From positions 44,996 through 108,995 of the forward strand of contig MGKI01000011.1 in NCBI GenBank assembly GCA_001795615.1: 64,000 bases of DNA. The letters are read 5' to 3'. The notes under the pieces were generated by a model. It saw only the letters and a list, made by a program, of their open reading frames with translations, ran no database searches and had not been told where the DNA came from. Of this stretch, positions 10,414-64,000 are shown one piece after another. Every line of letters starts with the position of its first letter. The stretch's first letter is position 1. This stretch comes from Candidatus Yanofskybacteria bacterium RIFCSPLOWO2_01_FULL_42_49. GTDB lineage: Bacteria > Patescibacteriota > Minisyncoccia > 2-02-FULL-40-12 > GWA2-44-9. The translations under genes and the position numbers were made by a program.

Positions 10414-10443
10414 GACAACCCAAAAACCCCTTTCGGGGTTTTT

Positions 10444-10947: not shown

Positions 10948-10996
10948 CCACTTGTCTCATAATCATGCCGACCGGAGTTGTTATAAGACAAGTTAG
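10948..10996. repeat. 45-nt stem-loop, copy ii, between the PaaX-like gene and rnpB.
   Basis: ttgtctcataatcatgccgaccggagttgttataagacaa. Confidence 0.7.
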
Positions 10997-11542: not shown

Positions 11543-11545
11543 AAA

Positions 11546-11590
11546 ATTTGTCTCATAAAGGTTCCGATCGGTATTATTATAAGATAATTA
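11546..11590. repeat. 45-nt stem-loop, copy iii, upstream of the PaaX-like gene.
   Basis: ttgtctcataaaggttccgatcggtattattataagataa. Confidence 0.65.
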
Positions 11591-14135: not shown

Positions 14136-14935
14136 AAAATTTTTGAAACAGTGGCTAAAATTTTTACAAACTCTTCTTTATTTACACTTGCACCGCCTAC
14201 CAAAACACCGTCAAATTGATTATTTTGTAAAAATTCCCGGGCATTAGCAGAAGTGATGGAACCGCCATATAAATAGGTCTTAGGTTTTAGGTTATAGGTT
14301 TTAGATAAAACTTCTTTGATTATAAATATTGACTCCGCAGCACTTTCGGGGGTATCGGAACGGGCGCCGGGAGTCGTGCTTATCGCCCAGACCGGCTCAT
14401 AGGCAATGATACACCGTGTGACTTCATCAGCCGAAAGACCGGCAAAAGTTGCTTCGACTTGTTTTTTTATGAAATCCTTCCAGCCGGAGGCTGGTTCGCC
14501 TTCGGCGGAAAAATCTCTTTCTCTCTCGCCTATGCAGACTATCGGTACCATTTCATTCCTTAAGACGGCCTTAAGTTTTTTATTTACCGTTTCGTTAGAC
14601 TCGTTTAACTTCCATCTTCTTTCGGAGTGGCCAACAATGACATATCCCACACCGAGTTTGCACAACATCGATCCAGAGACCTCGCCGGTTAGAGCCGTTT
14701 TGTCGTCTATCGATATGTCCTGCGCGCCAAGTTCCGCCTGATGTTCCAAGTGTGATGTTTTTAAAATCTTTCCGACTTCCTCAGTAAAAACAAAGGGGGG
14801 ACAAAATATCAGTCCGAATCTTTCGGCTTCCGATAAAGAACCGAGGTATTTGTCAGCCGAATCCAGAATCTCGACCGCTTCGGCCAGCGAATCGGGATGA
14901 TTCTTCCAATTGGCCACAATCAGTTGTTTAGTCAT
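14132..14935 (-). CDS. tpiA: Triosephosphate isomerase. Carries a 30-nt in-frame palindromic insertion (SAEGEPASGW).
   Basis: ANWKNHP…VGHSERR…CIGE…YEPVWAISTTPG TIM signatures. ATGA overlap with pgk. Confidence 0.9.
   Translation of the reverse strand: MTKQLIVANWKNHPDSLAEAVEILDSADKYLGSLSEAERFGLIFCPPFVFTEEVGKILKTSHLEHQAELGAQDISIDDKTALTGEVSGSMLCKLGVGYVIVGHSERRWKLNESNETVNKKLKAVLRNEMVPIVCIGERERDFSAEGEPASGWKDFIKKQVEATFAGLSADEVTRCIIAYEPVWAISTTPGARSDTPESAAESIFIIKEVLSKTYNLKPKTYLYGGSITSANAREFLQNNQFDGVLVGGASVNKEEFVKILATVSKIL
14480..14509. repeat. 30-nt GC-rich double mini-hairpin, in frame within tpiA.
   Basis: ccagcc-gga-ggctgg ttcgcc-ttc-ggcgga, encoding SAEGEPASGW. Confidence 0.8.
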
Positions 14936-16598: not shown

Positions 16599-16610
16599 CG
16601 CTTCGCTTGT

Positions 16611-16695
16611 GTAATACGAATTTTACAAATATCACACGAATACTGCGAATAATTCGTGGTATTCGTATACCATTCGTAGTATTCAGATTATGTTA
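16611..16695. repeat. ACGAAT-rich leader element, copy B, between GT2 and galT, ending about 12 nt upstream of the galT ATG.
   Basis: gtaatacgaattttacaaatatcacacgaatactgcgaataattcgtggtattcgtataccattcgtagtattcag. Confidence 0.8.
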
Positions 16696-17430
16696 ATCGT
16701 ACTTGCCAGTCATCAGATTCCATCTTATTTTAACTGTTTCCATAAGAACTTGGAAATACGCTTTTAGGCCGACATGGGACTCGGCGGCATTTTTCCAATC
16801 AACGGGAACTTCTTTTATCTTGTAGCCGAACTTCCTTGCCAAAGCAAGCACCTCGACATCAAATCCCCATCTTTCAATCGTAAGTTTGGGAAATATTTTC
16901 TCTGCCGCTTCGGCAGTGAAAAGTTTAAATCCTCTTTGGGTATCATTTATCCCGGGCACAGCCATAATTTGAATGAATAAATTGCCCATTTTACCAAAAA
17001 GACGGCGCCAGGCCGGTTCGCTTCCGGCGGCAACTTTATGGCCTGAAATAGCTATGGAACCGATAACCACTGAGTATCCTTCGCTTATATAAGGAATGAA
17101 CTTCTCCAAATGGTCCATAGAAGTTGAGTTATCAGCATCAGTGAAAAGACGCAGATCGCCGCTTGCTTTGGTCATGCCTTGCTTTACAGCATAACCCTTG
17201 CCACGGTTTATTTCGTAATCAAGAAGTTGAAGTGTTGAAAGCTCGGTTTTTAACAAACGGACAATATCATTGGTCTTATCTTTTGATCCGTCGGTAACAA
17301 CTAAAATTTCATGATCAATGTTTTTATCTTTCAGATAACAAAAAATGGGCCTGATAGTCTTTTCAATATTCTTCTCCTCATTGTAAGCAGGAATGATGAC
17401 GGATAAAAACATATAAATTATAATAACCAA
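16693..17430 (-). CDS. Glycosyltransferase family 2 (dolichyl/polyprenyl-phosphate sugar synthase-like).
   Basis: MFLSVIIPAYNEEKNI…VVTDGSKDKT…DADNS GT2 motifs. Contains a degenerate copy of the mini-hairpin insertion (AAGSEPAW). Confidence 0.8.
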   Translation of the reverse strand: MVIIIYMFLSVIIPAYNEEKNIEKTIRPIFCYLKDKNIDHEILVVTDGSKDKTNDIVRLLKTELSTLQLLDYEINRGKGYAVKQGMTKASGDLRLFTDADNSTSMDHLEKFIPYISEGYSVVIGSIAISGHKVAAGSEPAWRRLFGKMGNLFIQIMAVPGINDTQRGFKLFTAEAAEKIFPKLTIERWGFDVEVLALARKFGYKIKEVPVDWKNAAESHVGLKAYFQVLMETVKIRWNLMTGKYD

Positions 17431-18523: not shown

Positions 18524-18592
18524 TATAATACGAATGCCACGAATAGTTATTCGCAGTATTCGTGTGATATTCGTAGAATTCGTATTACACTT
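18524..18592. repeat. ACGAAT-rich leader element, copy C (opposite genomic orientation, same orientation relative to transcription), ending 5 nt upstream of the topA ATG.
   Basis: Reverse complement gtgtaatacgaattctacgaatatcacacgaatactgcgaataactattcgtggcattcg matches B and D. Confidence 0.8.
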
Positions 18593-23550: not shown

Positions 23551-23637
23551 AATGTAATACGAATTCTACGAATATCACACGAATACTGCGAATAATTCGT
23601 GGTATTCGCATATTATTCGTTATATTCGTATTATGTT
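23551..23637. repeat. ACGAAT-rich leader element, copy D, between parA and parB, ending 4 nt upstream of the parB ATG.
   Basis: aatgtaatacgaattctacgaatatcacacgaatactgcgaataattcgtggtattcgcatattattcgttatattcgtattatg. Confidence 0.8.
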
Positions 23638-23639
23638 GA

Positions 23640-24404
23640 TTAACTTGTTAACCTTATGACTTCCTCCGCCAATTGCCTATACGCTCTTGCCGCACGGGAA
23701 CCAGGGTCAAACTGCAAAATTGTTTTACCGAAACTTGGTGCTTCGGCCAATGACACCAACCGAGGAATAACAGCATTGAAAACTCGGCCGGGGAAATTTT
23801 TGTGGATCTCATTCATCACTTGGTGCGATAACTGGTTCCTCTTATCATACATTGTAAGCAATACCCCAAGCACTTGCAAATCAGGGTTAAGCCCTTGCCG
23901 GACAAGGTTGATTGTATTAAGCAGCTGGCTTAATCCTTCTAGTGCGAAGTATTCGCACTGAACCGGAATTACCACATTCTCTGAAGCAGCCAAAGCATTA
24001 ACGGTCAAAAGCCCTAGCGAAGGCGGACAATCAATCAGTATGTAGTCATAATTTGTACGAATTGAGTTTAGAACTTTCTTGAGACGGGTTTCTCTTTCAT
24101 CCATCGTAACCAGTTCTACGGTAGCACCGGCCAAGCTTTGAGCGGCGGGAAGAATGTCAAAGCCAAAGATTGATGTCTTTCTTATTATCGTCTCTGGATT
24201 TTGGTCAACGACAAGAGAATGATAAACATTGGGGTGATCTTGTTTTAGACTTACTCCAATACCAATCGTAGCATTTGCTTGAGAGTCTAAATCAACCAAT
24301 AAAACATATCTGCCCATAGCCGCAAGGTAGGCGGCTAAATTAGTGGCAGTAGTGGTCTTGCCAACTCCCCCTTTTTGATTGCAAACACTTATTACTCTAG
24401 CCAT
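23640..24404 (-). CDS. parA: Chromosome partitioning ATPase ParA/Soj.
   Basis: ISVCNQKGGVGKTTTATNLAAYLA deviant Walker A. 254 aa. Confidence 0.9.
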   Translation of the reverse strand: MARVISVCNQKGGVGKTTTATNLAAYLAAMGRYVLLVDLDSQANATIGIGVSLKQDHPNVYHSLVVDQNPETIIRKTSIFGFDILPAAQSLAGATVELVTMDERETRLKKVLNSIRTNYDYILIDCPPSLGLLTVNALAASENVVIPVQCEYFALEGLSQLLNTINLVRQGLNPDLQVLGVLLTMYDKRNQLSHQVMNEIHKNFPGRVFNAVIPRLVSLAEAPSFGKTILQFDPGSRAARAYRQLAEEVIRLTS

Positions 24405-35092: not shown

Positions 35093-36142
35093 ATGGCAGC
35101 TAAAATCAATCCGCCAGCTGGCGGACAAAAACTAATCGTCATTGTAGGCCCGACGGCTTCAGGAAAGTCGGATTTGGGCATCAAAATTGCTAAAAAAATT
35201 TCCGCCAGAGGCGGACCAGCCTCTGGCTGGAACGGTGCGGAAATAATTTCCGCGGATAGCCGACAAGTTTATCGTGGAATGGACGTCGGAACAGGAAAAG
35301 TTTTGCGAGACAAAACTTTTCCTGTTCCGAGTTCAAAAGTTAAAAGTGAAAAGTTAAAAGTTTTAAGAAATTATTTTTATTCTTCGGGGATTCGACATCA
35401 TTTGATAGATGTTGCTTCACCGAAAAAACAATTTACGGCTGATGACTTTAAAAGATTAGGGCAAAAAGCAATAAAAGAAATACTCGAGAAAAATAAAATC
35501 CCCATCATTGTCGGAGGTACCGGATTTTACATTGATATCTTGCTTGGCCGAATGTCGGTTGCCGAAGTCCCGCCAAATCCCAAATTGCGTAAATGCTTCG
35601 AGAGACTCAATACGGAGCATCTTTTCAAAATGCTTCGAAAACTAGACCTCCAACGAGCTAAAACAATAGGACCCAAAAACAAGCGCCGACTTATCCGAGC
35701 ATTGGAGATAATTCTAATAACCGGCAGACCGATACCAAAACCAGTATTAAGTATAAAGTATAAAGTATTATGGTTAGGGTTAAATCCTAAAAACTTGAAA
35801 GAGAGAATTAAGGTTCGCCTAGACGAGCGACTAAAACAAGGGATGATTGAAGAAGTTATAAATTTGCGCAAGCAAGGGGTAAGCTGGAAACGGCTTGATG
35901 GTTTCGGACTGGAATACCGCTATATCTCAAAGTACCTTCGAGAATTTTCAATTTCCAATTTTCAATTTTCAAAAAAAGATTACTACAATAATTTCAAGAA
36001 ATCATTCTATTACGGTAAACTCTTAAGAGATATAATCAAATACTCAAAGCGCCAGATGACCTGGTTCAAGAGAAATGAGGAAACATGTTGGATTAAAAAT
36101 TATTTGGAAGCAGAGAAATTGACGAAAAATTTTGTCTCATAG
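35093..36142 (+). CDS. miaA: tRNA dimethylallyltransferase with three in-frame low-complexity/palindromic insertions.
   Basis: GPTASGKSDLGIKIAKK…AEIISADSRQVYRGMDVGTGK…HHLIDV MiaA signatures. Inserts are SARGGPASGW, a KVKSEKLKV block and a FSISNFQFS block. Confidence 0.85.
   Translation: MAAKINPPAGGQKLIVIVGPTASGKSDLGIKIAKKISARGGPASGWNGAEIISADSRQVYRGMDVGTGKVLRDKTFPVPSSKVKSEKLKVLRNYFYSSGIRHHLIDVASPKKQFTADDFKRLGQKAIKEILEKNKIPIIVGGTGFYIDILLGRMSVAEVPPNPKLRKCFERLNTEHLFKMLRKLDLQRAKTIGPKNKRRLIRALEIILITGRPIPKPVLSIKYKVLWLGLNPKNLKERIKVRLDERLKQGMIEEVINLRKQGVSWKRLDGFGLEYRYISKYLREFSISNFQFSKKDYYNNFKKSFYYGKLLRDIIKYSKRQMTWFKRNEETCWIKNYLEAEKLTKNFVS
35201..35230. repeat. 30-nt GC-rich double mini-hairpin, in frame within miaA.
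   Basis: tccgcc-aga-ggcgga ccagcc-tct-ggctgg, encoding SARGGPASGW. Confidence 0.8.
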
Positions 36143-36177
36143 CTCTTCCGTACGGAATAGTTGTGAGACACTCGTAT

Positions 36178-37773
36178 CTATGCTCTTAACCTTTCTCTAA
36201 ATATCCCCTCGATTATTTGGGGATTTGCTTTACCCTTTGTTTCCCGCATGGCCATGCCGACAAGAAATTTTAGCGACGCTTCTTTCCCTTTTTTATAATC
36301 TTCCACGGCTTTAGGATTATCAGCAACAACCTTGTCCACCGCCATCTCAAGATCGCCGATGCTTGATAACTGTGCAAGATCTTTTTCTTCTATTATTTTC
36401 CCCGGAGAAGCTCCGGTCGCAAACATTTCTTTCAGCACTGTCTGGGCGCCGCTTGAAGAAACCTCGCCATGGAATATTCTGACGACAAGATCGGCCAGCA
36501 TTTCCGGTAACACTTTTGTATCTGCCAGTTCAGCATAAACCTCTTCGGCCATTCGTTTTAATTCGGTGATAAGATAGTTAGCTGCTAATTTAAAAAGTTG
36601 TTTGTGATGCTCCTCCAGTTTGCCCGCCCCGTAGTGTGATTTCGATTTTTCTTTGCCGGAGGAGGCATTCGAAATCTCTACTTCGGGGTCAAAAGATAAC
36701 AATTCCGAAGCCACATGTTCAAAATAATCTCCGAGCAGTTTGTCTGTGGTAAAAAGCTTAGTGTCCTTTTCTGGCAAACCGTATTGCTTGGCAAATCTTT
36801 CTCTTCTTTGTTGCGGTAACTCTGGAAGTCGGGACTTGATGTCTTCAATGTCGACGTCTTCAAAATGAAGCGGCGGCAAGTCCGGTTCCGGGAAATATCT
36901 GTAATCCTGCGCCTCTTCCTTTGTTCTCATTAAATACGTCTCCCCTTTTTTCTCATCCCAACCCCGTGTCTCTTGCTTTACCTTCTCCCCTGCCTCAAGA
37001 AGTTCGGTTTGTCTTTTTATCTCATAATTAACAGCATCGGCGGCAAACTTAATAGAGTTAATGTTTTTAACCTCAACTTTTGTCCCTAATTTGTTTGGTA
37101 ATTGTCCGCCAACTGGCGGATTGGAAATTGGTAATTCCGGTCGAAGTGATATATTCACTTCTACGCGCATCTGTCCTTTTTCCATGTCGGCGTCGGAAAC
37201 ATTTAAGTATCTCCAAATAAGCTGCAACTCCTCCGCAAATTTTTTGACCTCCTGTCCGCTTTCAAGATCTGGTTCTGTCACCAACTCCATAAGTGGCACC
37301 CCGGCACGATTAAAATCAACCAGTGAGTAGTCGGCACCAGTCGGATGGTACAACCGTCCAGCATCTTCCTCAAGATGTATTCGTGTTATTCTTATTCGTT
37401 TCGGATTTGAAATTTCTGGTTCTGAACTTGTTTCAGATTTTATATCAAGATACCCTTCATAACACAACGGTTTCTGGTATTGAGAAATCTGATAACCCTT
37501 AGGCAAATCTGGGTAAAAGTAATTTTTTCTTTCAAAAAAGGTGTCTTTTTCAATTTTACAATTCAACGCCAATCCGGTCATAATCACTTTTTTCACAGCA
37601 TCTTCGTTTGCGACGGGCAAGGTTCCCGGATGCCCCATACAAATTGGACAGACATTAACATTCGGGTGTTTTTCATCCGGATCATTTAACGAATCACAAA
37701 ACATTTTAGTTTTTGTCTTCAGCTCGGCGTGTATTTCCAGACCGATAACTGGCTTGTATTTAGTAGCGGCCAT
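36178..37773 (-). CDS. gatB: Asp/Glu-tRNA amidotransferase subunit B. Contains a 65-nt in-frame palindromic insertion (DPEVEISNASSGKEKSKSHYGAG).
   Basis: MAATKYKPVIGLEIHAELKTKTKMFC…NVCPICMGHPGTLP GatB N-terminus. 531 aa. Confidence 0.85.
   Translation of the reverse strand: MAATKYKPVIGLEIHAELKTKTKMFCDSLNDPDEKHPNVNVCPICMGHPGTLPVANEDAVKKVIMTGLALNCKIEKDTFFERKNYFYPDLPKGYQISQYQKPLCYEGYLDIKSETSSEPEISNPKRIRITRIHLEEDAGRLYHPTGADYSLVDFNRAGVPLMELVTEPDLESGQEVKKFAEELQLIWRYLNVSDADMEKGQMRVEVNISLRPELPISNPPVGGQLPNKLGTKVEVKNINSIKFAADAVNYEIKRQTELLEAGEKVKQETRGWDEKKGETYLMRTKEEAQDYRYFPEPDLPPLHFEDVDIEDIKSRLPELPQQRRERFAKQYGLPEKDTKLFTTDKLLGDYFEHVASELLSFDPEVEISNASSGKEKSKSHYGAGKLEEHHKQLFKLAANYLITELKRMAEEVYAELADTKVLPEMLADLVVRIFHGEVSSSGAQTVLKEMFATGASPGKIIEEKDLAQLSSIGDLEMAVDKVVADNPKAVEDYKKGKEASLKFLVGMAMRETKGKANPQIIEGIFRERLRA
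36624..36688. repeat. 65-nt imperfect palindromic element, in frame in gatB.
   Basis: cccgccccgtagtgtgatttcgatttttctttgccggaggaggcattcgaaatctctacttcgggg. Arms cccgtagtgtgatttcga and tcgaaatctctacttcggg. Confidence 0.8.
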
Positions 37774-40508: not shown

Positions 40509-40931
40509 TCACTTCACTTCAATCCCCATCGATCTTGCCGTTCCCTCGATTATTTTCATTGCCCCTTCGACATCATTCGCGTTTAAATCGGCCATTTTTT
40601 GTTCAGCTATCTCTTTGACTTGGGCTTTGGTAACTTTGCCGACTTTTGTCTTGTTTGGCACACCGGAACCTTTTTCAAGTCCGGCGGCAACTCGTAAAAG
40701 ATATGCCGCAGGAGGGGTTTTTAATTTAAATTCAAAACTCCTGTCTTCATAGATAGTTATCTCGACTGGGGTAACTTGGCCCATTTTATCTTTGGTTGCA
40801 TCATTAAACTGCGACACGAACTGCTGGAGATTTATTCCATGAGGACCCAAAGCCGTACCAACCGGCGGAGCCGGAGTAGCTCGCCCGCTTTCGACTTGGA
40901 GTTTTACAATTGTTTTTATTTTCTTAGCCAT
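40509..40931 (-). CDS. rplK: 50S ribosomal protein L11.
   Basis: [34 protein letters not shown]. 140 aa. Confidence 0.9.
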
Positions 40932-40934
40932 AAA

Positions 40935-41112
40935 TTTTAATAAATCTCTAAATCCTAATCTCTAAATCCTAAACACCTGCCTGCCGGCAGGCAGGAATCC
41001 AAAATTCTCAGCCTGAGGCTGATCCGCCTCTGGCGGAAAATATCTAAATGTTTTTGGATTTTGATATTTGGTCATTTGATATTGTTTAGAAATTAGAAAT
41101 TGCGAGTTATAT
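40935..41112. repeat. Composite intergenic element, copy 1 (AT-rich heptad module plus three GC hairpins), upstream of rplK.
   Basis: aaatctctaaatcctaatctctaaatcctaaacacctgcctgccggcaggcaggaatccaaaattctcagcctgaggctgatccgcctctggcggaaaatat…gatattgtttagaaattagaaatt. Nearly identical to copy 2. Confidence 0.85.
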
Positions 41113-42098: not shown

Positions 42099-42392
42099 TT
42101 AACTGTCAATAGCCTTCTTCTGAACATCGGTGGCCAATAAATAACCTGAGCGAAAGTAGTATTTAAGATTTTCCAAAAAAGACATTCCGTCGTAAGGATA
42201 TAGTTTGCCGGGTTTCGCATTTTTGTAATCAAAAATTCCTTCTCCTTCTATGTTTTTTAAAACGGGGTGGTTTTCATCTCCGTCAATTTCAACTCTCCCC
42301 GGTTCATCGCCTTGCATTTTAAAAGTAGCAATCTTTCTTTGCTTTGCATCTTTGTCCAGTTCGTATAAGTCAACGAAATAAAATAAGGTCAT
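42099..42392 (-). CDS. Hypothetical protein (97 aa).
   Basis: ORF only. Overlaps the next gene by 4 nt. Confidence 0.4.
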   Translation of the reverse strand: MTLFYFVDLYELDKDAKQRKIATFKMQGDEPGRVEIDGDENHPVLKNIEGEGIFDYKNAKPGKLYPYDGMSFLENLKYYFRSGYLLATDVQKKAIDS

Positions 42393-43147
42393 ATCGAGAT
42401 TGTTCCGGTTTCCAATACCGTTGCCGCTATTTGCTTAACACCGGTTATAACTTTGATCAAGGTCGGTGTCACTGTTTCAACACCTATTTCTCTTGGGTCA
42501 ACCAGAAGCCGCTCTAAGGCCTCAACGAGCCTTCTCAATGGCTCTCTCGATTCGTCGTTAATTTCTGTCTTTAGCCCCCGGCGTTTAGCTTCACCTAACA
42601 TGTAATTATACTGATTCCATTCTTCCTTGGCATCTGCAAACATAAAATCATCATGGTCTGTGAGCCAAATTTTTTTAGTTCTTTCTAAAAAAATATTTGC
42701 TAATTTTCTGTCCGCTGCCTTTATCAGATGTTCAAAAAGTACCGCTCGAAATAATTCCTCGTCTGAAATTTCTCTTAAACAATCATCCTCAAGTTTCACG
42801 GCCGGTGTGGCTTCACCTAAAAACCGCTGCAAGGTTCCCTCTTCTTGATTAACCGTCCTCATTACGACTTCTGGGACGACTCCTAATTCTGCGGTTTTAC
42901 TGATAAGTCTCGCTAATAGCTCAAGTTGAACTCTTAATGGCCTTCCTCTGGCTTCGCTCTCTTTGGGCCTGAACAAACCCTTCCCGTCATCTCTAATTTC
43001 TACAACATCAAATCTCTCCGCTCCCTCAAGTGGCCGACTGTCAACAATCTCTCCTCTCTCCAAAACCGACTCAATATCAACTTCCGGACCTGTTTCCGGC
43101 TTTGTGACTGGAGCTTCATGTTTTTCGAAAGATTGACCCTCTGCCAT
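42389..43147 (-). CDS. Hypothetical acidic protein (about 252 aa from MAEGQ).
   Basis: ORF. The track's 69-nt N-terminal extension (MDSCLPAGRCLGF…) is translation of the intergenic palindromic repeat, so the start is placed at 43147. Confidence 0.45.
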   Translation of the reverse strand: MAEGQSFEKHEAPVTKPETGPEVDIESVLERGEIVDSRPLEGAERFDVVEIRDDGKGLFRPKESEARGRPLRVQLELLARLISKTAELGVVPEVVMRTVNQEEGTLQRFLGEATPAVKLEDDCLREISDEELFRAVLFEHLIKAADRKLANIFLERTKKIWLTDHDDFMFADAKEEWNQYNYMLGEAKRRGLKTEINDESREPLRRLVEALERLLVDPREIGVETVTPTLIKVITGVKQIAATVLETGTISI

Positions 43148-43335
43148 AAGTGGTAAAATCTCTAAATCCCAATCTCTAAATCCTAAACACCTGCCTGCCG
43201 GCAGGCAGGAATCCAAAATTCTCAGCCTGAGGCTGATCCGCCTCTGGCGGAAAATATTTAAACGGTTTTGAGCTTTGATATTTGGTTATTTGATATTGTT
43301 TAGAGTTTAGAAATTAGAGTTTAGGGTTTTCTGTT
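43148..43335. repeat. Composite intergenic element, copy 2, upstream of the hypothetical gene 42389..43147 and downstream of gyrB.
   Basis: Same about 150-nt sequence as copy 1 with a few substitutions. Confidence 0.85.
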
Positions 43336-51255: not shown

Positions 51256-51801
51256 TTATTCCAGTTCGGGATGCCAATAAATTTTTTCTATTTTACGGGT
51301 GCCATTATAGGTATAGTGATGCTTATGCGGAAACCCTGTGCCTTTGGAATCGTTGCTTATCGCTTCCTGTCCGCTCCAAAAAAATCCAATATGATTGTGA
51401 GGCTCTCCGTCGTGGCCGTCTTTTTTCTCCCAAATTATTACAGCGCCAGGCTTGAGTTCTTTTATTTCGTACCAACCATTTTCAAGCAAATCTTTTTCGG
51501 TTGAAACGACGGTAAGGTGGATGTATTTAATCCAATGTTTCTTGCCCGTAAACTCCAACAGTGGGTTGAATGAGTAAAGAATGGACGACACCATAACCGC
51601 GCAGGAGTTCCTGCCGTTTTCAAGCGAATCTTCGATTTCCCCGCCCGCCCCGTAGTGTGATTTCGATTTATCTTTGCCGGAGGCATTCGAAATCTCTACT
51701 TCGGGGTGTTTTTCCACATAAAAATTCCTGAACAAATGGTTCTCGCCTTTTGCGGAATTTTCGATTTGAGTTAAATAATTTTTTTTTAACAACAACCTCA
51801 T
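51256..51801 (-). CDS. CHAP/NlpC-P60-like cysteine peptidase (putative cell-wall hydrolase). Carries the 65-nt in-frame palindromic insertion also present in gatB.
   Basis: NSCAVMVSSIL…GW…KPGAVIIW…HIGFFWSG Cys/His arrangement. Insertion is PEVEISNASGKDKSKSHYGAGG. Confidence 0.5.
   Translation of the reverse strand: MRLLLKKNYLTQIENSAKGENHLFRNFYVEKHPEVEISNASGKDKSKSHYGAGGEIEDSLENGRNSCAVMVSSILYSFNPLLEFTGKKHWIKYIHLTVVSTEKDLLENGWYEIKELKPGAVIIWEKKDGHDGEPHNHIGFFWSGQEAISNDSKGTGFPHKHHYTYNGTRKIEKIYWHPELE
51641..51704. repeat. 65-nt imperfect palindromic element, second copy, in frame in the CHAP-like peptidase gene.
   Basis: ccgcccgccccgtagtgtgatttcgatttatctttgccggaggcattcgaaatctctacttcgggg. Identical to the gatB copy apart from 3 nt and one codon. 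Confidence 0.8.
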
Positions 51802-51902: not shown

Positions 51903-53264
51903 TTACGGCTCGCAGGTTACTGTATATGTATAGGTGGCGGGGCCGGTGAGATTACCGGTTGAACGAGAGTTATCTGTTCCAGCCCAACCAGTTGGTGAAA
52001 CAGTACATTGAGATACATTTTGGGAGGACCAGTTGACTTTTGCGGAAGAATTATACGGGATTGAAGAAGGTTCGCAAGTTATTGAAACCGAAGGCTCTAA
52101 AACAGGAACTGTTGTTTGGGCAGTAGGGCTTGTTCCCCCCGGTCCGGTGCAAGTCAAAGTGTATGTTTGAGATGAAGTCAATGGTAGCGTGGTTCTTCTG
52201 GATAGAGGCACACCATTGGACGATGTTTCCACTGGTCCCTGCCAACCGGTTGTAGTGCCGCCGGCGGTACAGGAAGTGGCATCGGTTGAAGACCAAGTCA
52301 AAACAGAAGTACCGTTATATCGGACACTAGCCGGAGAAGCAGAAATAGATGCGGTCGGCCGAGCTGGCTGAATTACCGCAACTGACCTTTCTTTAAGATC
52401 CGACCCTCCGGGTCCTTCGCATCTGACTCCAAAAGTAGTCGGATCAGCGGTCAGACCGCCCGTAGTGGTTGAAGAGTACCCGCTGGTACCAAGCCACTGT
52501 CCGCTCCAAGTGGGCCAGTTACCCGTACCCCAACAGCCGGTTACATTACCACTGACTGACCACGAAACCGTAACATTTTCCCCCCTGTTAACCCTTGACG
52601 GACTGACGGAAACAGAAACCGACGGAGGCGATGGTTCTTGAACCTTAACCGTTGTACTGGCCAAAGTCGATCCGCCTGATGAATTATAGCAAGTTATATC
52701 ATAAGTTTTAGTTATGGTTAAATTTCCGGTCGTTGTGTCATAATTAGCAGGAATCTGGACTCCTTGCGGGCTCCAGTTTTGGCCAGTGACACAATAACTG
52801 GCATTGGAACGAACATGAAGACCTGTGGATGTGTTGTATGGGATCGAAGAAGAATCAGGATAGAAATTGACGGTCGGAGGTGGCTGGTTTTGGTTCCATG
52901 TCACATAATAACCCCTTTCTTTGCCGTTTCTATTAGACACCCAGCCTTCTGGATCTACTTTATTAAAAGTGTAGCCTGGTACAGAATTTAAGTCTACTAT
53001 AATAGTCCAATCTCCTTCTTCCATGCCGTACCAATAATAACGGACGGAATACGAACCCCACTGGTTAAGGCATTGATACCAGCTGTCTTCCCTATACCCC
53101 GAAGGGGTTTCCCCTTTGGCCATTAAAGTGTAGCAAAAATTGGGCACGTTGCCGCTGATAGTAACTCCTCCCGGGTTATACGCTTTTGCGTCCTCGGCCA
53201 GCATAAAAAAACAGGCTAAAATAAAGGTTGTAAAAACAATCAGTTTTAGTTTCATTTTATTCAT
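51903..53264 (-). CDS. Secreted/surface protein with signal peptide and three to four tandem Ig-like beta-sandwich repeats, Ser/Thr/Gly-rich.
   Basis: MNKMKLKLIVFTTFILACFFMLAEDAKA signal. Repeated …PS-x-S-x-S-x-SP-x-V-x3-(N/T)-x-(V/L)-x-W-S-(S/V)-x5-C… modules. Confidence 0.6.
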   Translation of the reverse strand: MNKMKLKLIVFTTFILACFFMLAEDAKAYNPGGVTISGNVPNFCYTLMAKGETPSGYREDSWYQCLNQWGSYSVRYYWYGMEEGDWTIIVDLNSVPGYTFNKVDPEGWVSNRNGKERGYYVTWNQNQPPPTVNFYPDSSSIPYNTSTGLHVRSNASYCVTGQNWSPQGVQIPANYDTTTGNLTITKTYDITCYNSSGGSTLASTTVKVQEPSPPSVSVSVSPSRVNRGENVTVSWSVSGNVTGCWGTGNWPTWSGQWLGTSGYSSTTTGGLTADPTTFGVRCEGPGGSDLKERSVAVIQPARPTASISASPASVRYNGTSVLTWSSTDATSCTAGGTTTGWQGPVETSSNGVPLSRRTTLPLTSSQTYTLTCTGPGGTSPTAQTTVPVLEPSVSITCEPSSIPYNSSAKVNWSSQNVSQCTVSPTGWAGTDNSRSTGNLTGPATYTYTVTCEP

Positions 53265-53637
53265 TTATCAAAATTATTTTTTTGGCTATAAATCTACCGT
53301 CCGATGAAACTTCATACTCAGCTGAAATAATTGAACCTTCCGTTATTTTTGAAATTTCTTCCAAAACAAGTTCTCCATAACCGGGAAGAGTTTTATTTAC
53401 CAAAGTTTGATCATTGTAATAAATTGCTGCCTCCTGATTTTGCCCGGCTTTGTTGGTTGATAAATCAACTGAACCAGCCCGGATGACGATTCTCCCTTCA
53501 TTTATTGAGATAATCTCTCCCGAAACAAACGAGAAACTCTCGTTTTGGTTGTTACTCTGTAAATTAAAGTACCAAACCATGCCCGCACCAATAAGGGTTA
53601 AGATCATAATTATAATTGTAATTCTTTTGACTTTCAT
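53257..53637 (-). CDS. Small N-terminally membrane-anchored protein, paralog of 56264..56680.
   Basis: MKVKRITIIIMILTLIGAGMVWYF TM helix, then …GEIISINEGRIVIRAG…, similar to …GRIIEIKENSIVVSG… of the paralog. Overlaps its downstream partner by 8 nt. Confidence 0.5.
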   Translation of the reverse strand: MKVKRITIIIMILTLIGAGMVWYFNLQSNNQNESFSFVSGEIISINEGRIVIRAGSVDLSTNKAGQNQEAAIYYNDQTLVNKTLPGYGELVLEEISKITEGSIISAEYEVSSDGRFIAKKIILINE

Positions 53638-53670: not shown

Positions 53671-56289
53671 TTATCTTGGAGCTATTTCTTTCCACAGCGG
53701 AATTGATTTTTGAATAAGTATCGGCCCCTTTGTCCTGGCGCAGGATTGGTTTGCGTTATCTGTCGCTGTAAGGGTTACATAATATGTTCCTTCTCCAACA
53801 TAAGTATGGGACGGGTTCTGTTGCGCCGATGATCCGCCGTCGCCAAATGTCCAACTCCATAGCCGGCCGTTCGGATTACCGCCAAATACGGTTTGATCAG
53901 TAAACTGTACAGGATTGTTTAAAGGAGGGTTGGGTGGCGACCAACTAAAATCGACTTGAGGATAAGCATAATTCGGAGTTTTCCAGCTAGAACCAGTCAT
54001 CCAGTTTGACACCCTATCAAAACCGTTCCAAACCCTAACTCTGGCCCGATAAGTAACATTGAATTGCAGAATACCCTGGCCGGTAAAATAAGATTTAGAA
54101 CCGGAAATTATCTTGCCGGTGTCAACTTCCGGACTGTCAAATGAGCCCTTGTCGTCGATTTGGACCTGATAAGCCGACTGGGGACCACCACCGGGGTCGC
54201 TGTAAGTCCAGCCAACCGTCGCCGCCGGCCCCGATATACAGTAGTTGGGCTCGGTGACGGTAATATCAGATACTGAAGGGATAGAAGGCGGCGGGGGATC
54301 AACGGTTACGGTGCAAAAATCGCTTACTGGTCCGGGTGGAGGCGGTGGTGGAGGAGCAGCATTATTATTAACACGAATGTTGACAGTATAAGATGTCGTA
54401 TTCCCGGCGTTGTCTGTGGCCCTGACAGTAATTGTATGCGACCCATTGCTTACCGTAGCTGAATCCCATATATAGGTATAGCCCACAAAAGGACATCCGG
54501 TCCTAAAGCCTCCTGCAGCAGTACAAGCATCTCTCCTGTCAGTATTTCCATATGAATTGTTGTTAACCAAAACCGAGTCAACAAATATATCTACCATGGA
54601 AACTGGCCCCTCATCAGCATTCCAGTAATCAAGGGCCCATCCTCCCACAACAACACTGCCTGAAAGGTTGGCGCCGTTTTGCGGAGCATCTAGCGCTAAT
54701 GTCGGCGGGTTACCTACCGGTAGCGGTGGTGGAAGAGAATCAACTACTACAGTAGCAGAACATGTCCTGATTGACCCGGCACTATTTACAACTGTTAGCA
54801 CACAGGTTTGCGAATCAGGTACAATATCTATTTCTCCATTTGGGCTAATGAATGTTCCTGAACCGATACTCCCCCTACCACAATCAAAAGGAATATACCC
54901 ATCAACATCATTAGACGAACTCCATGATAAATTACTTGATTCGCCGGAGTTTATATTTGATGGGAAAAAATTGGCAACACAAGTTGCATCGCTCGGTTGT
55001 GGTGGAGGCGGTGACGATGGAGGCGGTGACGATGGAGGCGGTGACGATGGAGGCGGTGACGATGGAGGCGGCGGCGGTAGGGCTCCGCTGATAAAATCAG
55101 CGGTAACGGTTCTATCGGCATTCATCGTAACACTACATTGGTTGCCGCTTGAACTGTCGCATCCCGACCAGGCCGTTACGAAACCGCTATCTGGGATGGC
55201 ATCAAGAGAAACATTGGTACCATCCGGGTAACTCTCGGTACAGTCGGATCCGCAACTTATACCGGGGCCGGAAACGCTTCCGTTGGCTCCGCGGTTAACA
55301 TCCAGATTATAATTGCCCGGAGGCGAAGGAGGCACAGACGAAGAACAGTTCCCGCCAAACGCAACATTATCAGCGTCCGTTGTGCCAGCACTGTTTTTGG
55401 CTATTACAAAATAGTAAAGGTCCACATCTTGAATGGGACTGTCAACAGTATAATCGGTGCCTCCAATGTTAGTGGCTATAGTCCTCCAGCTCCCACCTAA
55501 CCATTGCTTTTCTAATAGATCATAGAGGGTTGCATTAGCCGAAGAACCCCAGCTTATATCTATATACTGGGAACCATCGCCTCTGGTTTGGCAACTTGAA
55601 TTATTCATACTAAAAGGCCCCGGGGAAGGAACATAAACATCAACACTACAATCATCGGATTGGCCAGCACTTGTTACGGTAACGGTTTTTGTTCCGGCAG
55701 TTGAATAAACAGTAGATAAGTTGCTTCCCGTTCCGGATGTCGGAGATCCGTCGGGAGCCGACCAAGAAAAATTCCCGTCACCGTCAGAAGCGCTGAAATT
55801 TACAGTTTGATCGGTACTGGCCGTCTGGCTTGATGGGCTACAGGCAGGAGGCAAGATAGCGGGTTCAATTTCAACAGTCCAGGTCCAGTTAACAGTCGAT
55901 TTAATGCCTTGTATAAAAAAGTCTGTCCACTCTTCCCCTGTCCCGCCGGATAACGTCATCGAATCGGAAAATTGCTGTTGATACCAGGATCTTGTATCAG
56001 CGTCAGTCATCCCTGAACTGTTGCCAATACGAATGGCGACATGCCCTTGGCCGTTGTTAAGACTGCCGCTTATGGTAAAGTTTATCTGTGATGATCTTAT
56101 GTACTCGCCAGGGTCAGCCCATTCTTCTCGTGGTCTAGGATAACAATACTCAAAAGTACTTTGATCAAAATTACAGTAACCACTTTGAACCTGAGTACGT
56201 GCATACGCCCCGTTAAAAATAAAAGGTAGCCCGACCAATACTAAGCCAAAAAATATAAAATTTTTAGTCCTTGAGGATAATGGATTCAT
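53671..56289 (-). CDS. Large secreted surface protein with signal peptide, Ig/FN3-like domains, a (PPPSS)n linker and a C-terminal PKD domain.
   Basis: Signal MNPLSSRTKNFIFFGLVLVGLPFIFNGAYA. PPPPSSPPPSSPPPSSPPPSSPPPP linker. C-terminal WSWTFGDGGSSAQQNPSHTYVGEGTYYVTLTATD (PKD signature). 872 aa. Confidence 0.7.
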   Translation of the reverse strand: MNPLSSRTKNFIFFGLVLVGLPFIFNGAYARTQVQSGYCNFDQSTFEYCYPRPREEWADPGEYIRSSQINFTISGSLNNGQGHVAIRIGNSSGMTDADTRSWYQQQFSDSMTLSGGTGEEWTDFFIQGIKSTVNWTWTVEIEPAILPPACSPSSQTASTDQTVNFSASDGDGNFSWSAPDGSPTSGTGSNLSTVYSTAGTKTVTVTSAGQSDDCSVDVYVPSPGPFSMNNSSCQTRGDGSQYIDISWGSSANATLYDLLEKQWLGGSWRTIATNIGGTDYTVDSPIQDVDLYYFVIAKNSAGTTDADNVAFGGNCSSSVPPSPPGNYNLDVNRGANGSVSGPGISCGSDCTESYPDGTNVSLDAIPDSGFVTAWSGCDSSSGNQCSVTMNADRTVTADFISGALPPPPPSSPPPSSPPPSSPPPSSPPPPQPSDATCVANFFPSNINSGESSNLSWSSSNDVDGYIPFDCGRGSIGSGTFISPNGEIDIVPDSQTCVLTVVNSAGSIRTCSATVVVDSLPPPLPVGNPPTLALDAPQNGANLSGSVVVGGWALDYWNADEGPVSMVDIFVDSVLVNNNSYGNTDRRDACTAAGGFRTGCPFVGYTYIWDSATVSNGSHTITVRATDNAGNTTSYTVNIRVNNNAAPPPPPPPGPVSDFCTVTVDPPPPSIPSVSDITVTEPNYCISGPAATVGWTYSDPGGGPQSAYQVQIDDKGSFDSPEVDTGKIISGSKSYFTGQGILQFNVTYRARVRVWNGFDRVSNWMTGSSWKTPNYAYPQVDFSWSPPNPPLNNPVQFTDQTVFGGNPNGRLWSWTFGDGGSSAQQNPSHTYVGEGTYYVTLTATDNANQSCARTKGPILIQKSIPLWKEIAPR
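55004..55078. repeat. Perfect 15-bp tandem repeat (ggaggcggtgacgat ×4, plus a degenerate unit) encoding the Pro/Ser linker on the minus strand.
   Basis: Seen directly: ggaggcggtgacgatggaggcggtgacgatggaggcggtgacgatggaggcggtgacgatggaggcggcggcggt. Confidence 0.9.
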
Positions 56290-56680
56290 AATTTATGTAT
56301 AAAGCGGTAGCTTCGTTGACGGTAAACAAATCTTCGTTGCTTTCAACTCTTAAAATTCTAACGTTGGTATTATTCATTAAGTCAGAAAGTGAACCATCTG
56401 CCATCTCTGGAGGAGTAATCTTGTTGGCCAAACTGATAACAGTGATGCTTTTTTTAAATACAGTTTCAGGTGTAATTCTGAATTCAACCGTTCTTTCCTG
56501 TCGATACTCGTCTCCTGATTTTAACGACCTCGCCATTCCTGAAACAACAATCGAGTTTTCCTTAATTTCAATAATTCTTCCATACATCCAGTACATATTT
56601 TTGTCCTGATTGAAAAAGTAGAATAAAAATATTCCTAAAATTAAAACGATGAATCCCAAAATCCACACCTTTTTATTCAT
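56264..56680 (-). CDS. Small N-terminally membrane-anchored protein, paralog of 53257..53637.
   Basis: MNKKVWILGFIVLILGIFLFYFF TM helix. Overlaps the start of the PKD protein by 26 nt. Confidence 0.5.
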   Translation of the reverse strand: MNKKVWILGFIVLILGIFLFYFFNQDKNMYWMYGRIIEIKENSIVVSGMARSLKSGDEYRQERTVEFRITPETVFKKSITVISLANKITPPEMADGSLSDLMNNTNVRILRVESNEDLFTVNEATALYINYESIILKD

Positions 56681-56732
56681 ACTGACATTATATCATATCA
56701 AATTCCTGGGGCTAAAAAGTTATAAACAAAAA

Positions 56733-56752
56733 GGGCCGACCACGGTCAGCCC
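56733..56752. terminator. Rho-independent terminator (gggccgacc-ac-ggtcagccc plus T-run on the minus strand) after the GC-rich lipoprotein gene.
   Basis: Minus strand reads ggaagggctgaccgtggtcggccctttttgtttat. Confidence 0.6.
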
Positions 56753-56762
56753 TTCCCTTCCC

Positions 56763-57398
56763 CTACTCCGATGTTCTAAGAAATGTCACCTCCCATTCTA
56801 GCACCTGATGCGACAGTACATTCCTCAAAGCGCTAATAAGAATGGGGGGTTTTGTTTCGGGGGCGCTAGGAGGGAACCCCCGAAATACAAGCACGTGAAC
56901 GAAGCTGAAGGTGGTATCTTGTCTTACTGATACCCCCACCGCCAGAGTCGCTGGATTCTCTTGTCTCCAGTCTCCAACCCTCCTAACCCACTGACCACCG
57001 AATCCGTGTGTGAGCACATCTCTCTCTTGAGAGACTGCCGTAACTACGCCCACATACTCCGAATCCGACATACCGTCGAACAAGAGCCAGACTGTCAACA
57101 AGGCTATCTGGCCTTTCTCGATAACTCCACCATTCGGGGTTATCATCTGAATCCTCTGAATTTCAGCGGTACCACCCCCGGGTGAAGGCGAAGTGGGTCC
57201 GCTATCGCACCCGGCAAGGACAAGCCCCGCCAGCGCGATCAGCATCACGGCCAAAATCGGCCACAGATCGACGAACACGAACTTCGTGTTGCCGATACGT
57301 CGAATGGCGAATCCCGCCGAAGAGCGTCGTGCACGAGTTGCCCCAAAAGTCATTGTTCTTCTCCTTGTTGTCGAGCTTGACTCGACAGTAAATGTCAA
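56763..57398 (-). CDS. Putative lipoprotein (lipobox LAGC) in a GC-rich (about 55% versus about 40%) island. Likely start is the internal M at 57353.
   Basis: …RRIGNTKFVFVDLWPILAVMLIALAGLVLAGCDSGPTSPSPGGG signal plus lipobox. Local GC is clearly above the flanks. Has its own terminator. Confidence 0.5.
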   Translation of the reverse strand: MTFTVESSSTTRRRTMTFGATRARRSSAGFAIRRIGNTKFVFVDLWPILAVMLIALAGLVLAGCDSGPTSPSPGGGTAEIQRIQMITPNGGVIEKGQIALLTVWLLFDGMSDSEYVGVVTAVSQERDVLTHGFGGQWVRRVGDWRQENPATLAVGVSVRQDTTFSFVHVLVFRGFPPSAPETKPPILISALRNVLSHQVLEWEVTFLRTSE

Positions 57399-57497
57399 CG
57401 ATCGATCCTTACATCTTAATCATACCATAAAACACCCACAAAAGTCAAGCAAAAAATTCCTAGGAATTTTGGATATGAAAACGGCCTTATCGGGCCG

Positions 57498-58454
57498 TTA
57501 CTTTAGCTTAATTCTCAAAAGCAACTGAACAGAGGAAGGGCTGTTTTTAAACAAGAGCTCATCTTCTCTGTCAAAATTAAAACGCCCCTTCAACACAAAT
57601 CTTAGTCTGTCTGCGCGCAATAGCGGAACCGCCTCCAAAGATCCCTCCGCCGCAAGATCGTCGAATCTGTTTAGTCCATATGTATTTTCATCCCAGAACA
57701 TAAAGACTTTTTCGTAAAAACTTTTTTCAACTCGCATTCTATAACTGAACCGTTTCAAAAAATCTATTCTTCCGTCTGTCGCCACAAAAAAGGTTCTGTA
57801 CTGATCGTCATAAAGAGGAAGCGGCCCAACATCTCTAAACGAAGCTATGTAAACCTCCTGGCTTTCGGTCCATATATACCCACCGCCTACCCTTATCGCC
57901 AGATACCTGTCGTTGAGATCTCCAAATTTTGCACCACCCCAGCCTCGACTGCCATAAGACAATCTTTCAAAGTCAGCATTGAACTGAATACCATTGATGA
58001 TCGATAACGCTTTTTCCTGCTCAACAAATCCTCCTATTCCAAATAAAAACCCGCCCAAACTTTCTTCACCGGAAAACTTAAAAGACTTATTGTTTCTTAC
58101 ATTGACGCCATCATCGGAATAAGAAAACCCGCCGGAAACATCAACTGCATAGTCAACCCCTTCAAATCTTACACTTGGATTGGGCCAAACCACCGAAATT
58201 TGATCCTCCCAAGGATCTCTCAATGTTCCAAGGTTGACAGACCTATCCTGAATCCTGCCTATATCCACACTTCTTTCAAAAGGAAGAAGTGGGATATCCA
58301 AAAAAATGGCTTTCTTTTTTTTGACCTTAACAGGTTCGGACGGTTGGGAAGGTTGATCAGCCACAACCGGTTCCGGCTCTTTTTCCTGAGCAAGGACACT
58401 CGAACCCGAAAAAATTAAAAACATAGCAAAAACTAAGCACAACCCCTGCTTCAT
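57498..58454 (-). CDS. Secreted hypothetical protein (signal peptide; Gly/aromatic-rich).
   Basis: MKQGLCLVFAMFLIFSGSSVLAQE signal. Terminator aacggccttatcgggccgtt overlaps the stop. 318 aa. Confidence 0.55.
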   Translation of the reverse strand: MKQGLCLVFAMFLIFSGSSVLAQEKEPEPVVADQPSQPSEPVKVKKKKAIFLDIPLLPFERSVDIGRIQDRSVNLGTLRDPWEDQISVVWPNPSVRFEGVDYAVDVSGGFSYSDDGVNVRNNKSFKFSGEESLGGFLFGIGGFVEQEKALSIINGIQFNADFERLSYGSRGWGGAKFGDLNDRYLAIRVGGGYIWTESQEVYIASFRDVGPLPLYDDQYRTFFVATDGRIDFLKRFSYRMRVEKSFYEKVFMFWDENTYGLNRFDDLAAEGSLEAVPLLRADRLRFVLKGRFNFDREDELLFKNSPSSVQLLLRIKLK

Positions 58455-63607: not shown

Positions 63608-64000
63608 TTACTTAAGTTTTTCTTCGAGTAACTTCGCTATGTCTTTGGTGTCAATTCTCTTTTGTTCCATGGTGTCCCGGTCACGCAAAGTTACCGTCCC
63701 GTCCTCCAGCGTCTGAAAGTCCACCGTGATACAGAATGGGGTGCCTATTTCGTCTTGCGAATAATATCGTTTGCCGATATTTCCTCTGTCGTCCCAGGCG
63801 ATATTTAAACTTGTCATTTTTAAATCTTTAAACACCTGTCGCGCTTTGGCGGCTAACTCCGGCTTGTTCTTTAACAACGGAAACACCGCCGCTTTGTACG
63901 GCGCGAGTTTTGGGTGGATTTTCAGGACGATCCTATCTTTTTCTTCTTGATATGCATCGAGCAAAAAGAATAGTAGCGCCCGGTCCACACCGCCTGATGT
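63608..64000 (-). CDS. glyQS: Glycine--tRNA ligase (alpha2 type), C-terminal anticodon-binding domain only; the 5' part lies beyond the window end.
   Basis: …KAAVFPLLKNKPELAAKARQVF…DDRGNIGKRYYSQDEIGTPFCITVDFQTLEDGTVTLRDRDTMEQKRI matches the GlyRS C-terminus. Confidence 0.7.
   Translation of the reverse strand, partial: TSGGVDRALLFFLLDAYQEEKDRIVLKIHPKLAPYKAAVFPLLKNKPELAAKARQVFKDLKMTSLNIAWDDRGNIGKRYYSQDEIGTPFCITVDFQTLEDGTVTLRDRDTMEQKRIDTKDIAKLLEEKLK

Follow-up and report, generated by a model that had tools for sequence, protein, structure and literature searches.

The 64-kb stretch of DNA analysed here (the window) comes from a groundwater genome bin of Candidatus Yanofskybacteria, a member of the Parcubacteria within the candidate phyla radiation (CPR). 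It is core chromosome: domain scans identified genes encoding ParAB, TopA, DprA, RelA/SpoT, PGK, TIM, GlmS, RNase III, NusB, NusG, GyrB, PheS, IMPDH and Tmk. A ∼ 9 kb block (50.7-59.8 kb) consists of orphan genes for secreted and membrane proteins, and inside this block, between the IMPDH/PheS/GyrB genes and the Tmk gene, is a short island rich in guanine plus cytosine (GC) that consists of one minus-strand gene, w196, for a putative lipoprotein. The neighbouring products carry signal peptides, membrane anchors or PKD/Ig domains, which bears out the block of surface and secreted proteins described around the gene in a first-pass annotation of this DNA. That annotation also proposed that the island was probably acquired horizontally. 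We located counterparts in the same chromosomal slot of two relatives and, because these are GC-rich as well, we regard the island as an inherited property of the gene family and not as the scar of a recent import.

The GC content of the window is 43.0% (sliding 640-nt windows: mean 0.430, sd 0.037). The highest 640-nt value in the whole 64 kb, 0.545, starts at 56731 (about 56730-57450), in agreement with the previously noted island of about 55% GC. The flanks are indeed poorer in GC, but they range from 33 to 42% and are not uniformly 38-40% as had been stated. The limits of the island coincide exactly with the transcription unit, from transcription start to terminator. The coding sequence (CDS) has 54.1% GC compared with 42.1 ± 3.2% in the 46 other open reading frames (ORFs) of the window (z about +3.8). 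The excess is seen at all three codon positions (57.9/48.2/56.3% against 48.7/35.7/41.9%), and at third positions (GC3) the value of 56.3% compares with 41.9 ± 3.9% (z +3.7). The claimed compositional deviation extends to synonymous sites, where w196 has the poorest codon-usage fit among 47 genes (z -4.3). After normalisation for GC, by contrast, the dinucleotide signature is no outlier (84th-93rd percentile). Several overlapping plus-strand ORFs, also mentioned in the first-pass annotation, are present (74, 69 and 111 aa).

The island is a single monocistronic unit on the minus strand that runs from its own promoter to its own terminator. The two relatives lie on a 4 kb contig, L001, and on the merged contigs L018 and L019 (2976 nt; the third locus), and most elements of the unit can be compared across all three. 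The promoter (57419..57448, minus strand) is of the sigma-70 type, close to consensus, and consists of TTGACT, an 18-nt spacer ending in TGG (extended -10) and TATGAT, with 10 of 12 matches. It is conserved in L001 (TTGACT...TGGTATAAT), and the third locus has TTGACA-18-TACAGT, again with TGG. Transcription is predicted to start near 57412, which gives a predicted 5' untranslated region (UTR) of about 59 nt (57354..57412, minus strand). The UTR contains a hairpin, UGUCGAG-UCAAG-CUCGACA (57369..57387, minus strand), 2 nt upstream of the Shine-Dalgarno sequence AAGGAG (57361..57366, minus strand). L001 retains this hairpin through compensatory changes (GUCGAG/CUCGAC to GCCGAG/CUCGGC), and in the third locus another hairpin, GGCCAUUUGGCC, takes its place. 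The sequence surrounding the Shine-Dalgarno element, AACAAGGAGA, is identical in all three loci. Since AAGGAG is spaced 7 nt from ATG 57353 and both relatives retain it, we assign the start to this codon (196 aa) and not to TTG 57398. The 211-aa product proposed earlier from the TTG start is over-extended, and public databases likewise call a 196-aa product (OGN22559.1, hypothetical protein, Candidatus Yanofskybacteria).

The CDS comprises 196 codons and a TAG stop codon (56763..57353, minus strand); none of 5000 mononucleotide shuffles of it was free of in-frame stops. An intrinsic terminator follows (56724..56752, minus strand), in which the stem-loop GGGCTGAC-CGTG-GTCGGCCC (56733-56752) precedes the T-tract TTTTTGTTT. 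The rho-independent terminator that had been reported at 56733..56752 is therefore real, and the gene has its own promoter too. The 61-nt segment containing the terminator (56715-56775) folds at -22.3 kcal/mol (z -2.9), the hairpin at 56733-56752 was not listed by a simple pattern scanner, and an analogous terminator lies directly past the stop codon in both relatives. On the other side, a G+C-rich hairpin, AACGGCCTTATCGGGCCGTT (57480..57499, assigned to neither strand), separates the island from the upstream gene w318 (57498-58454, minus strand) and marks the upstream boundary of the unit; L001 and L018+L019 likewise have such a hairpin ahead of the promoter. Directly after the -10 element all three loci have a start codon next to a stop codon, ATG-TAA in the window (57409-57414, minus strand) and ATG-TAG or GTG-TAG in the relatives (2604-2610 region of L001). 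This could be a conserved start-stop pair or merely a conserved initial transcribed sequence. We do not claim a minimal upstream ORF here because the predicted transcription start falls inside the pair.

The first 49 codons (57207..57353, minus strand) encode an extended leader, MTFGATRARRSSAGFAIRRIGNTKFVFVDLWPILAVMLIALAGLVLAGC, made up of a basic N-region (R7, R9, R10, R18, R19 and K24), a predicted beta-hairpin, a hydrophobic helix and the lipobox LAGC. AlphaFold2 places a helix at residues 31-48, with predicted local distance difference test (pLDDT) values of 63-76. The lipobox occupies residues 46-49 behind the hydrophobic stretch WPILAVMLIALAGLV, in agreement with the pattern [LVI][ASTVI][GAS]C after a hydrophobic h-region, and the relatives have LAGC and LVGC. 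The description of the product as a lipobox protein with an Arg-rich N-region thus holds, and the lipobox, whose cysteine is Cys49 in the window protein, is conserved in all three family members. A twin-arginine translocation signal was rejected, since the RR pair is not conserved in one relative, P0004 (VRFSSRSW), and the h-region begins about 20 residues later. A type IV prepilin signal was discarded as well, the sequence having no G/FxxxE-type site.

The lipobox cysteine is followed by a Pro/Ser/Thr/Gly linker, DSGPTSPSPGGG (57171..57206, minus strand); comparable P/S/T-rich linkers occur in both relatives and in a paralog of normal GC content at the third locus. The remainder of the protein is an ectodomain (the 'cargo') of 135 aa (56766..57170, minus strand; GC3 52%) that is predicted to be beta-rich. 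Overall the protein contains many V, G, L, A, T and R but only three K, four N and one Y residues, with an Arg to Lys ratio of 14 to 3. We detected no homolog of the ectodomain, the cargos of the relatives included, and hhalign comparisons between cargos gave probabilities below 1%. Searches of Pfam, NCBIfam, PHROGs, PADLOC and PDB sequences with the protein and its relatives returned no match above threshold. In these searches it did not correspond to a known defence gene. Sub-threshold matches were confined to the lipobox/hydrophobic stretch (Rz-like spanin, E 0.014; TrbK, E 0.04; 'invert_tail', E 0.003).

Among the about 15 billion public proteins searched, two relatives were the only matches apart from the protein itself, and no high-GC donor came to light. 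Against 5.8 billion protein clusters, a word-indexed search returned only the query's own entry and P0003 (45% identical over the first 36% of the query); P0004 was the sole addition from an exhaustive HMMER search of 1.84 billion representatives with a leader profile. Nothing further came from searches that used P0004 or a four-sequence profile as the query. GTDB representative contigs, scanned with peptide patterns and then with a degenerate 38-nt leader pattern, contained no relatives, nor did JGI metagenome contigs scanned with peptide patterns, and phage records and viral contigs likewise lacked homologs. Six matches of the UTR 18-mer in the JGI contigs were all due to chance and in unrelated contexts. 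As only three loci were recovered across these searches, we conclude that the family is tiny and that the public data searched hold no high-GC donor.

Judged by their sequence context, the three known loci share one slot, directly upstream of a gene for a small membrane protein of the w138 type and within a block of surface proteins, and both relatives lie on low-GC contigs of CPR type. L001 has the same layout as the window: upstream terminator, promoter, UTR, hairpin close to the Shine-Dalgarno sequence, gene, terminator and then a homolog of w138 (E 5.6e-13). A fragment of an aminoacyl-tRNA synthetase (aaRS) gene on L001 is 70% identical to the aaRS gene at 63626-64000 of the window, from which we conclude that the two genomes are related but well diverged. 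At the third locus the homologous unit has w138-like genes on both sides, which have the same architecture as w138 and a weak shared motif but no significant pairwise BLAST match to it. Next in order is a gene with a PKD-like motif, which corresponds in position to w872 behind w138 in the window. The genes themselves have 54.1, 56.4 and 49.8% GC in the window, L001 and the third locus respectively, compared with flanks of 36-42% in L001 (where GC3 of the gene is 63.6%) and 25-42% in the third locus. GC3 of the leader is 67, 69 and 64%, and that of the cargo 52, 62 and 47%, in the same order. The third-locus cargo is 37% identical (E 8e-31) to a paralog encoded just upstream, which has an ordinary short lipoprotein signal peptide, MKRTIMAGLVVVSMVFGGMGC, and an ordinary composition (41.8% GC, GC3 36.6%). 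This context shows that the GC-richness goes with the long-leader gene and not with the genome or the locus.

Of the protein, only the leader is shared with the two relatives, and no two of the three ectodomains can be aligned; promoter, 5'UTR and 49-residue leader are conserved. Comparison of the window with L001 shows how far this conservation reaches at the nucleotide level. The aaRS gene, a housekeeping gene with 70% amino-acid identity, has identical nucleotides at 42% of third positions and identical codons for 43% of identical residues. Over 50 codons the leader has a similar amino-acid identity (67%, the value also obtained against P0003), but 73% of its third positions (P 8e-6 against the 42% of the aaRS gene) and 73% of the codons for identical residues are identical. 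Promoter plus UTR are 81% identical (80 of 99 nt; binomial P 3e-15 against 0.42). The cargo, in contrast, is at the random level of 27% amino-acid identity with unalignable nucleotides, and for the neighbour w138 the amino-acid identity is 35-39%. The UTR and leader of the third member are more diverged (53-63% nucleotide and 52-60% amino-acid identity). Within codons 22-27 (NTKFVF) of the leader is a perfect 17-nt palindrome, AACACGAA-G-TTCGTGTT (57274..57290, minus strand), that is identical in L001. At the third locus AAC is replaced by GGC; these A-to-G changes preserve G-U pairing in RNA and break the palindrome in DNA. The signal peptide and 5'UTR are thus more conserved than the mature protein, even synonymously, which is the reverse of the usual pattern. 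This conservation points to either a function at the RNA level or homogenisation driven by recombination.

The transcripts also fold more strongly than expected. The three CDSs reach -0.37 to -0.44 kcal/mol per nt, compared with about -0.2 to -0.3 in other genes. Relative to dinucleotide shuffles, z is -2.2 for the window gene and -5.2 and -5.3 for its relatives, against a background of -0.58 ± 1.4 and a value of -0.5 for the normal-GC paralog. We further permuted synonymous codons within each gene (60 permutations), which keeps protein, codon usage and GC. The resulting z-scores are -2.28 for the window gene and -3.17 and -3.31 for the relatives, for each of which none of the 60 permutations was as stable; six control genes, the normal-GC paralog included, gave +0.4 to -1.3. 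The folding excess is consistent across the family and modest for the window gene alone. In L001 the ectodomain coding region (2811-3209) contains four perfect hairpins with 8-10-bp stems, e.g. CCAGAGGAATccgATTCCTCTGG and GCAGATACGGgcattCCGTATCTGC, far above shuffles; these could be due to selection or to template-switch mutation. Over the whole L001 transcript, a count of hairpins with stems of at least 7 bp gives 14 hits where shuffling predicts 0.4 (each distinct hairpin counted once per loop length). A scan of the whole window against Rfam 15 at the gathering score found only two tRNAs, distant from the island, and a scan of 56600-57560 at E up to 10 gave nothing above 24 bits, compared with thresholds of 34-80.

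About two thirds of the GC excess is due to amino-acid composition and one third to synonymous codon choice. The GC content expected from the amino acids and the window codon table is 50.4% (z +2.8), a value that resembles those of the Pro/Gly/Ser-rich neighbours w872 and w453, and the observed content is 54.4%. Observed GC3 is 55.9% compared with 44.8% expected by the host codon table (z +2.9). The excess combines a composition rich in Gly, Ala, Val, Arg and Pro and poor in Lys, Asn and Tyr with GC-ending synonymous codons that accompany strong mRNA structure. Candidate causes for the persistence of this bias are selection on mRNA structure and recurrent recombination with GC-biased gene conversion.

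We interpret w196 as a membrane-anchored surface-lipoprotein gene that is conserved at its locus, has a variable ectodomain and carries a 5' module that is constrained or recombining at the nucleotide level, and we put the probability of this reading at roughly 0.55. That it is a protein-coding gene follows from the absence of open shuffles, from the leader and lipobox kept in frame in three loci and from the protein-level paralog of one cargo. The product would be exported by Sec, modified with diacylglyceryl and then cleaved by signal peptidase II at Cys49; the lipid-anchored product would then be displayed at the surface of an episymbiotic CPR bacterium. CPR bacteria spend their lives attached to other cells, and the likely mediators of this contact are their surface proteins, nearly all of which are uncharacterised orphans. 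A fixed module for expression and export (promoter, UTR and leader) would drive the display of a surface domain that changes quickly or is swapped. Anatomy, shared position, compositional deviation, nucleotide conservation and excess folding are shown by the data; lipidation, surface exposure, a role in host contact and the cause of the bias in GC and structure are inferred.

Several observations weigh against this interpretation. By the PROSITE PS51257 rule, the lipobox cysteine of a canonical lipoprotein signal peptide lies about 15-35 residues from the N-terminus; here it is at position 49 (49 in P0003 and 47 in P0004), outside that range. Neither lgt nor lspA turned up in the scanned ORFs of the 64-kb window. 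No confident fold was obtained for the ectodomain: the mean AlphaFold2 pLDDT is 38.6 for the window protein, modelled with a three-sequence alignment, and 58.4 for P0004 by itself, and the models are therefore too poor for fold searches. The folding excess of the window gene is modest, as two of its 60 synonymous permutations are as stable and five of 46 background genes have a dinucleotide z equal to or below its own. With three family members and unalignable 3' parts, tests for covariation and recombination have little power. Finally, the lasting GC-richness of synonymous sites could equally reflect repeated lateral exchange.

The last point leads to the strongest competitor, in which the gene or its 5' module is a cassette exchanged repeatedly among CPR lineages by transformation and homologous recombination at the locus. 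The leader would then look conserved on account of recent sharing, its high GC would be maintained by a GC-richer pool of donors or by GC-biased gene conversion, and the breakpoint towards the ectodomain would lie just past the lipobox. The sharp drop in identity from promoter and UTR (81%) and leader third positions (73%) to a random cargo and a w138 with 35-39% amino-acid identity fits such exchange, as does GC3, which peaks in the leader and falls towards the 3' end in two of three loci. A domain swap would give a cargo homologous to an adjacent ordinary lipoprotein, as found at the third locus, and DprA, a transformation protein, is encoded in the window. Recombining bacterial genes tend to be GC-richer, and GC-biased conversion has been proposed for them (PMC4450053). 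However, the UTR and leader of the third member are much diverged, so exchange is not universal, and recombination alone does not explain the folding excess under synonymous permutation. The effects of GC-biased conversion reported in bacteria are modest compared with a GC3 shift of 15-25 points, and only three sequences are available for recombination tests. We regard the cassette as possible, with perhaps one chance in four by our reckoning, and place it clearly below the lipoprotein reading set out above. Recent import from a higher-GC donor or from the host organism that has not yet ameliorated, the origin first proposed, is improbable. It would account for a gene whose GC, GC3 and codon usage deviate more than those of any other in the window, for the excess of Arg over Lys that is typical of proteins from GC-rich genomes, and for a moron-like unit with its own promoter and terminator. 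But counterparts occupy the same slot in two other low-GC contigs and are GC-rich in each, a finding that the first-pass annotation itself had named as grounds for abandoning the idea, and the protein, phage, viral, GTDB and metagenome searches gave neither a donor nor any other outside homolog. Mobility genes, integrases and reverse transcriptases are absent, there are no flanking repeats and no tRNA at the borders (the nearest is 7.6 kb away), the dinucleotide signature is ordinary, and the GC boundaries match a transcription unit and not an insertion scar. The same results speak against a host-derived or otherwise foreign factor, and a phage origin was rejected for want of phage or viral homologs and phage context.

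A GC-rich island in an AT-rich genome is the classic sign of a structured RNA, and the transcript might primarily or additionally be a functional RNA, with the ORF possibly secondary. All three mRNAs fold beyond what composition and codon usage predict, the L001 cargo contains its four perfect hairpins, synonymous sites of the leader are conserved and the palindrome hairpin has changed in a G-U-tolerant manner. Yet Rfam gave no match even at the relaxed E-value, the ORF, Shine-Dalgarno sequence, ATG and lipobox are kept in frame in all three loci, and one cargo is clearly a protein-level homolog of a normal-GC paralog. Outside the leader the structures cannot be aligned between loci and the z-scores of the window gene are modest, so that we consider an RNA of this kind unlikely, about on a par with recent import. 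Least probable of all is phase variation of the Mycoplasma Vsp/Vpma type, in which one expression site is recombined with silent cassettes by a site-specific recombinase. The pattern across species matches that reported for vsp and vpma (PMC2268961), and a perfect palindrome lies within the leader. Against this, the leader 26-mer and the UTR 18-mer are single-copy in the window even with up to three mismatches allowed, the 64 kb contain no second copy of any island segment, and no recombinase was found in the annotated ORFs of the window. Contigs from ten samples are 99.9-100% identical without rearrangement, which argues against switching within the population, and the 90% protein cluster has a single member; the same near-identity makes these contigs uninformative on allelic variation of the gene. 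Diversity-generating retroelement targets, shufflons and silent-cassette systems were rejected on similar grounds, since 56730-57450 is not repeated in the window and no reverse transcriptase or recombinase domain was found.

As this case shows, an island of deviant composition in a CPR genome is not necessarily a recent import, and a gene can stay GC-rich and structure-rich at one locus across several AT-rich genomes. With three known family members the practical value is modest. As a speculative extension, which we hold only tentatively, the block of promoter, UTR and leader may be a portable 'display module' of a few CPR lineages, whose nucleotide sequence is functional as a regulatory or stabilising structured RNA or as a recombination substrate and onto which unrelated ectodomains are grafted, the cargo of the third locus being an example. 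If so, it would be a single-site, between-lineage form of surface-antigen replacement, and the GC- and hairpin-rich CDS would either have been selected for mRNA structure or be the product of diversification, e.g. by template switching, which creates perfect inverted repeats.

The downstream neighbour w138 (56264..56680, minus strand), which is conserved and defines the common slot in the chromosome, encodes a small, N-terminally anchored membrane protein. At 56687-56695 (minus strand) it has an extended -10 element, TGATATAAT, that ends 6 nt before the ATG, and there is no Shine-Dalgarno sequence; on this basis the w138 mRNA is probably leaderless. A Pfam scan at E up to 1 did not reproduce the DUF5666 label that UniRef gives to w138. 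Each surface-protein gene is followed by one for a small N-terminally anchored protein with the common motif G-x-[IV]-[IV]-x-I-x-E-x-x-[IL]-V, at 56264-56680 and 53257-53637 (both minus strand) in the window, at 3436-3879 in L001, at 684-1205 in L018 and at 808-1344 in L019. The pairs are w196 then w138 and w872 then w126 in the window, and the arrangement occurs twice in the third locus, which suggests that a surface-protein gene and a small anchored protein form a repeated two-gene module. In w872 (53671-56289, minus strand) a 15-nt tandem repeat (54994-55076) encodes a (PPPSS)n tract of this PKD/Ig surface protein, and the length of the tract is polymorphic among the population contigs (872 or 862 aa).

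Repeats of other kinds are dispersed through the window. A G+C-rich double-hairpin repeat of ∼ 37 nt, similar to TTTCCGCCAGAGGCGGATCCGCCTTCGGCGGAAA, is found in both orientations at 13075-13111, 14475-14511, 35196-35232, 41003-41039 and 43217-43253; ORF 35093-36142, possibly called from a wrong start, has an extreme folding z (-6.0) that is probably due to the copy at 35196. Units resembling ACGAATA make up an AT-rich repeat of up to 88 nt (copies 89-98% identical), which occurs at 8865-8897, 16610-16697, 18547-18592 (inverted) and 23553-23640, in intergenic positions beside glycosyltransferase, dprA/topA and parB genes. Two copies of a 160-nt duplication with 94% identity (40942-41101 and 43156-43315, 2214 nt apart) lie directly upstream of ORFs 40509-40931 and 42389-43216, near nusG and gyrB. 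A 41-nt stretch is 98% identical between 36622-36662 and 51643-51683, within the otherwise different ORFs 36178-37773 and 51256-51801 (both minus strand). A 43-nt repeat with inverted ends, TTGTCTCATAA...TTATAAGACAA, is present at 10376-10418, 10949-10991, 11545-11587 and 36129-36171 and flanks ORF 11009-11542, which has a PaaX_M/Cas2-like domain. Lastly, a giant ORF of at least 1928 aa (1-5784, minus strand) continues past the left end of the window. Within it are 477-nt tandem repeats that are up to 99% identical (2682-4412) and the second GC peak of the window, about 53% at 1001-2040; the GC3 of the ORF is only 45.6%.

Compared with known systems, the protein resembles bacterial lipoproteins (Lgt/LspA substrates; PROSITE PS51257 lipobox) in its positive N-region, the hydrophobic segment right before L-A-G-C and the Pro/Ser/Thr-rich tether. 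It differs in that the leader, at 49 residues (47 in one relative), is about twice the usual length and is the best-conserved part of the protein, including a ∼ 20-residue cytoplasmic segment (GF..R.IG.TKFVFV). Extended signal peptides such as the extended signal peptide region (ESPR) of autotransporters, YSIRK-G/S and KxYKxGKxW have a conserved motif in an N-terminal extension before an ordinary hydrophobic core, and a conserved motif in the extension is also seen here. Those motifs, however, occur in many proteins per genome and are described by Pfam or TIGRFAM models, whereas this leader is found once per genome, matches no model and is known from three loci only. Prophage morons and genomic islets share the stand-alone promoter-gene-terminator unit, the deviant GC content and the lipoprotein product, but w196 lies in the core chromosome, its position is conserved in relatives, and phage context and phage homologs are lacking.

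In the vsp and vpma genes the 5'UTR and signal-peptide region are highly conserved across species, at the nucleotide level too, and the remainder has no significant homology (PMC2268961). The Mycoplasma bovis Vsp and M. agalactiae Vpma proteins thus share with w196 the conserved 5'UTR and leader joined to unrelated mature regions, again in small-genome, host-associated bacteria (PMC2268961). The gene described here differs from them in being single-copy, with no gene cluster, adjacent tyrosine recombinase, inverted recombination sites or population-level switching. To our knowledge GC-richness relative to the genome is not a feature of vsp or vpma, unlike in the present gene. On the pattern of conserved 5' region and variable mature protein, the Mycoplasma Vsp/Vpma lipoproteins are its closest analogy.

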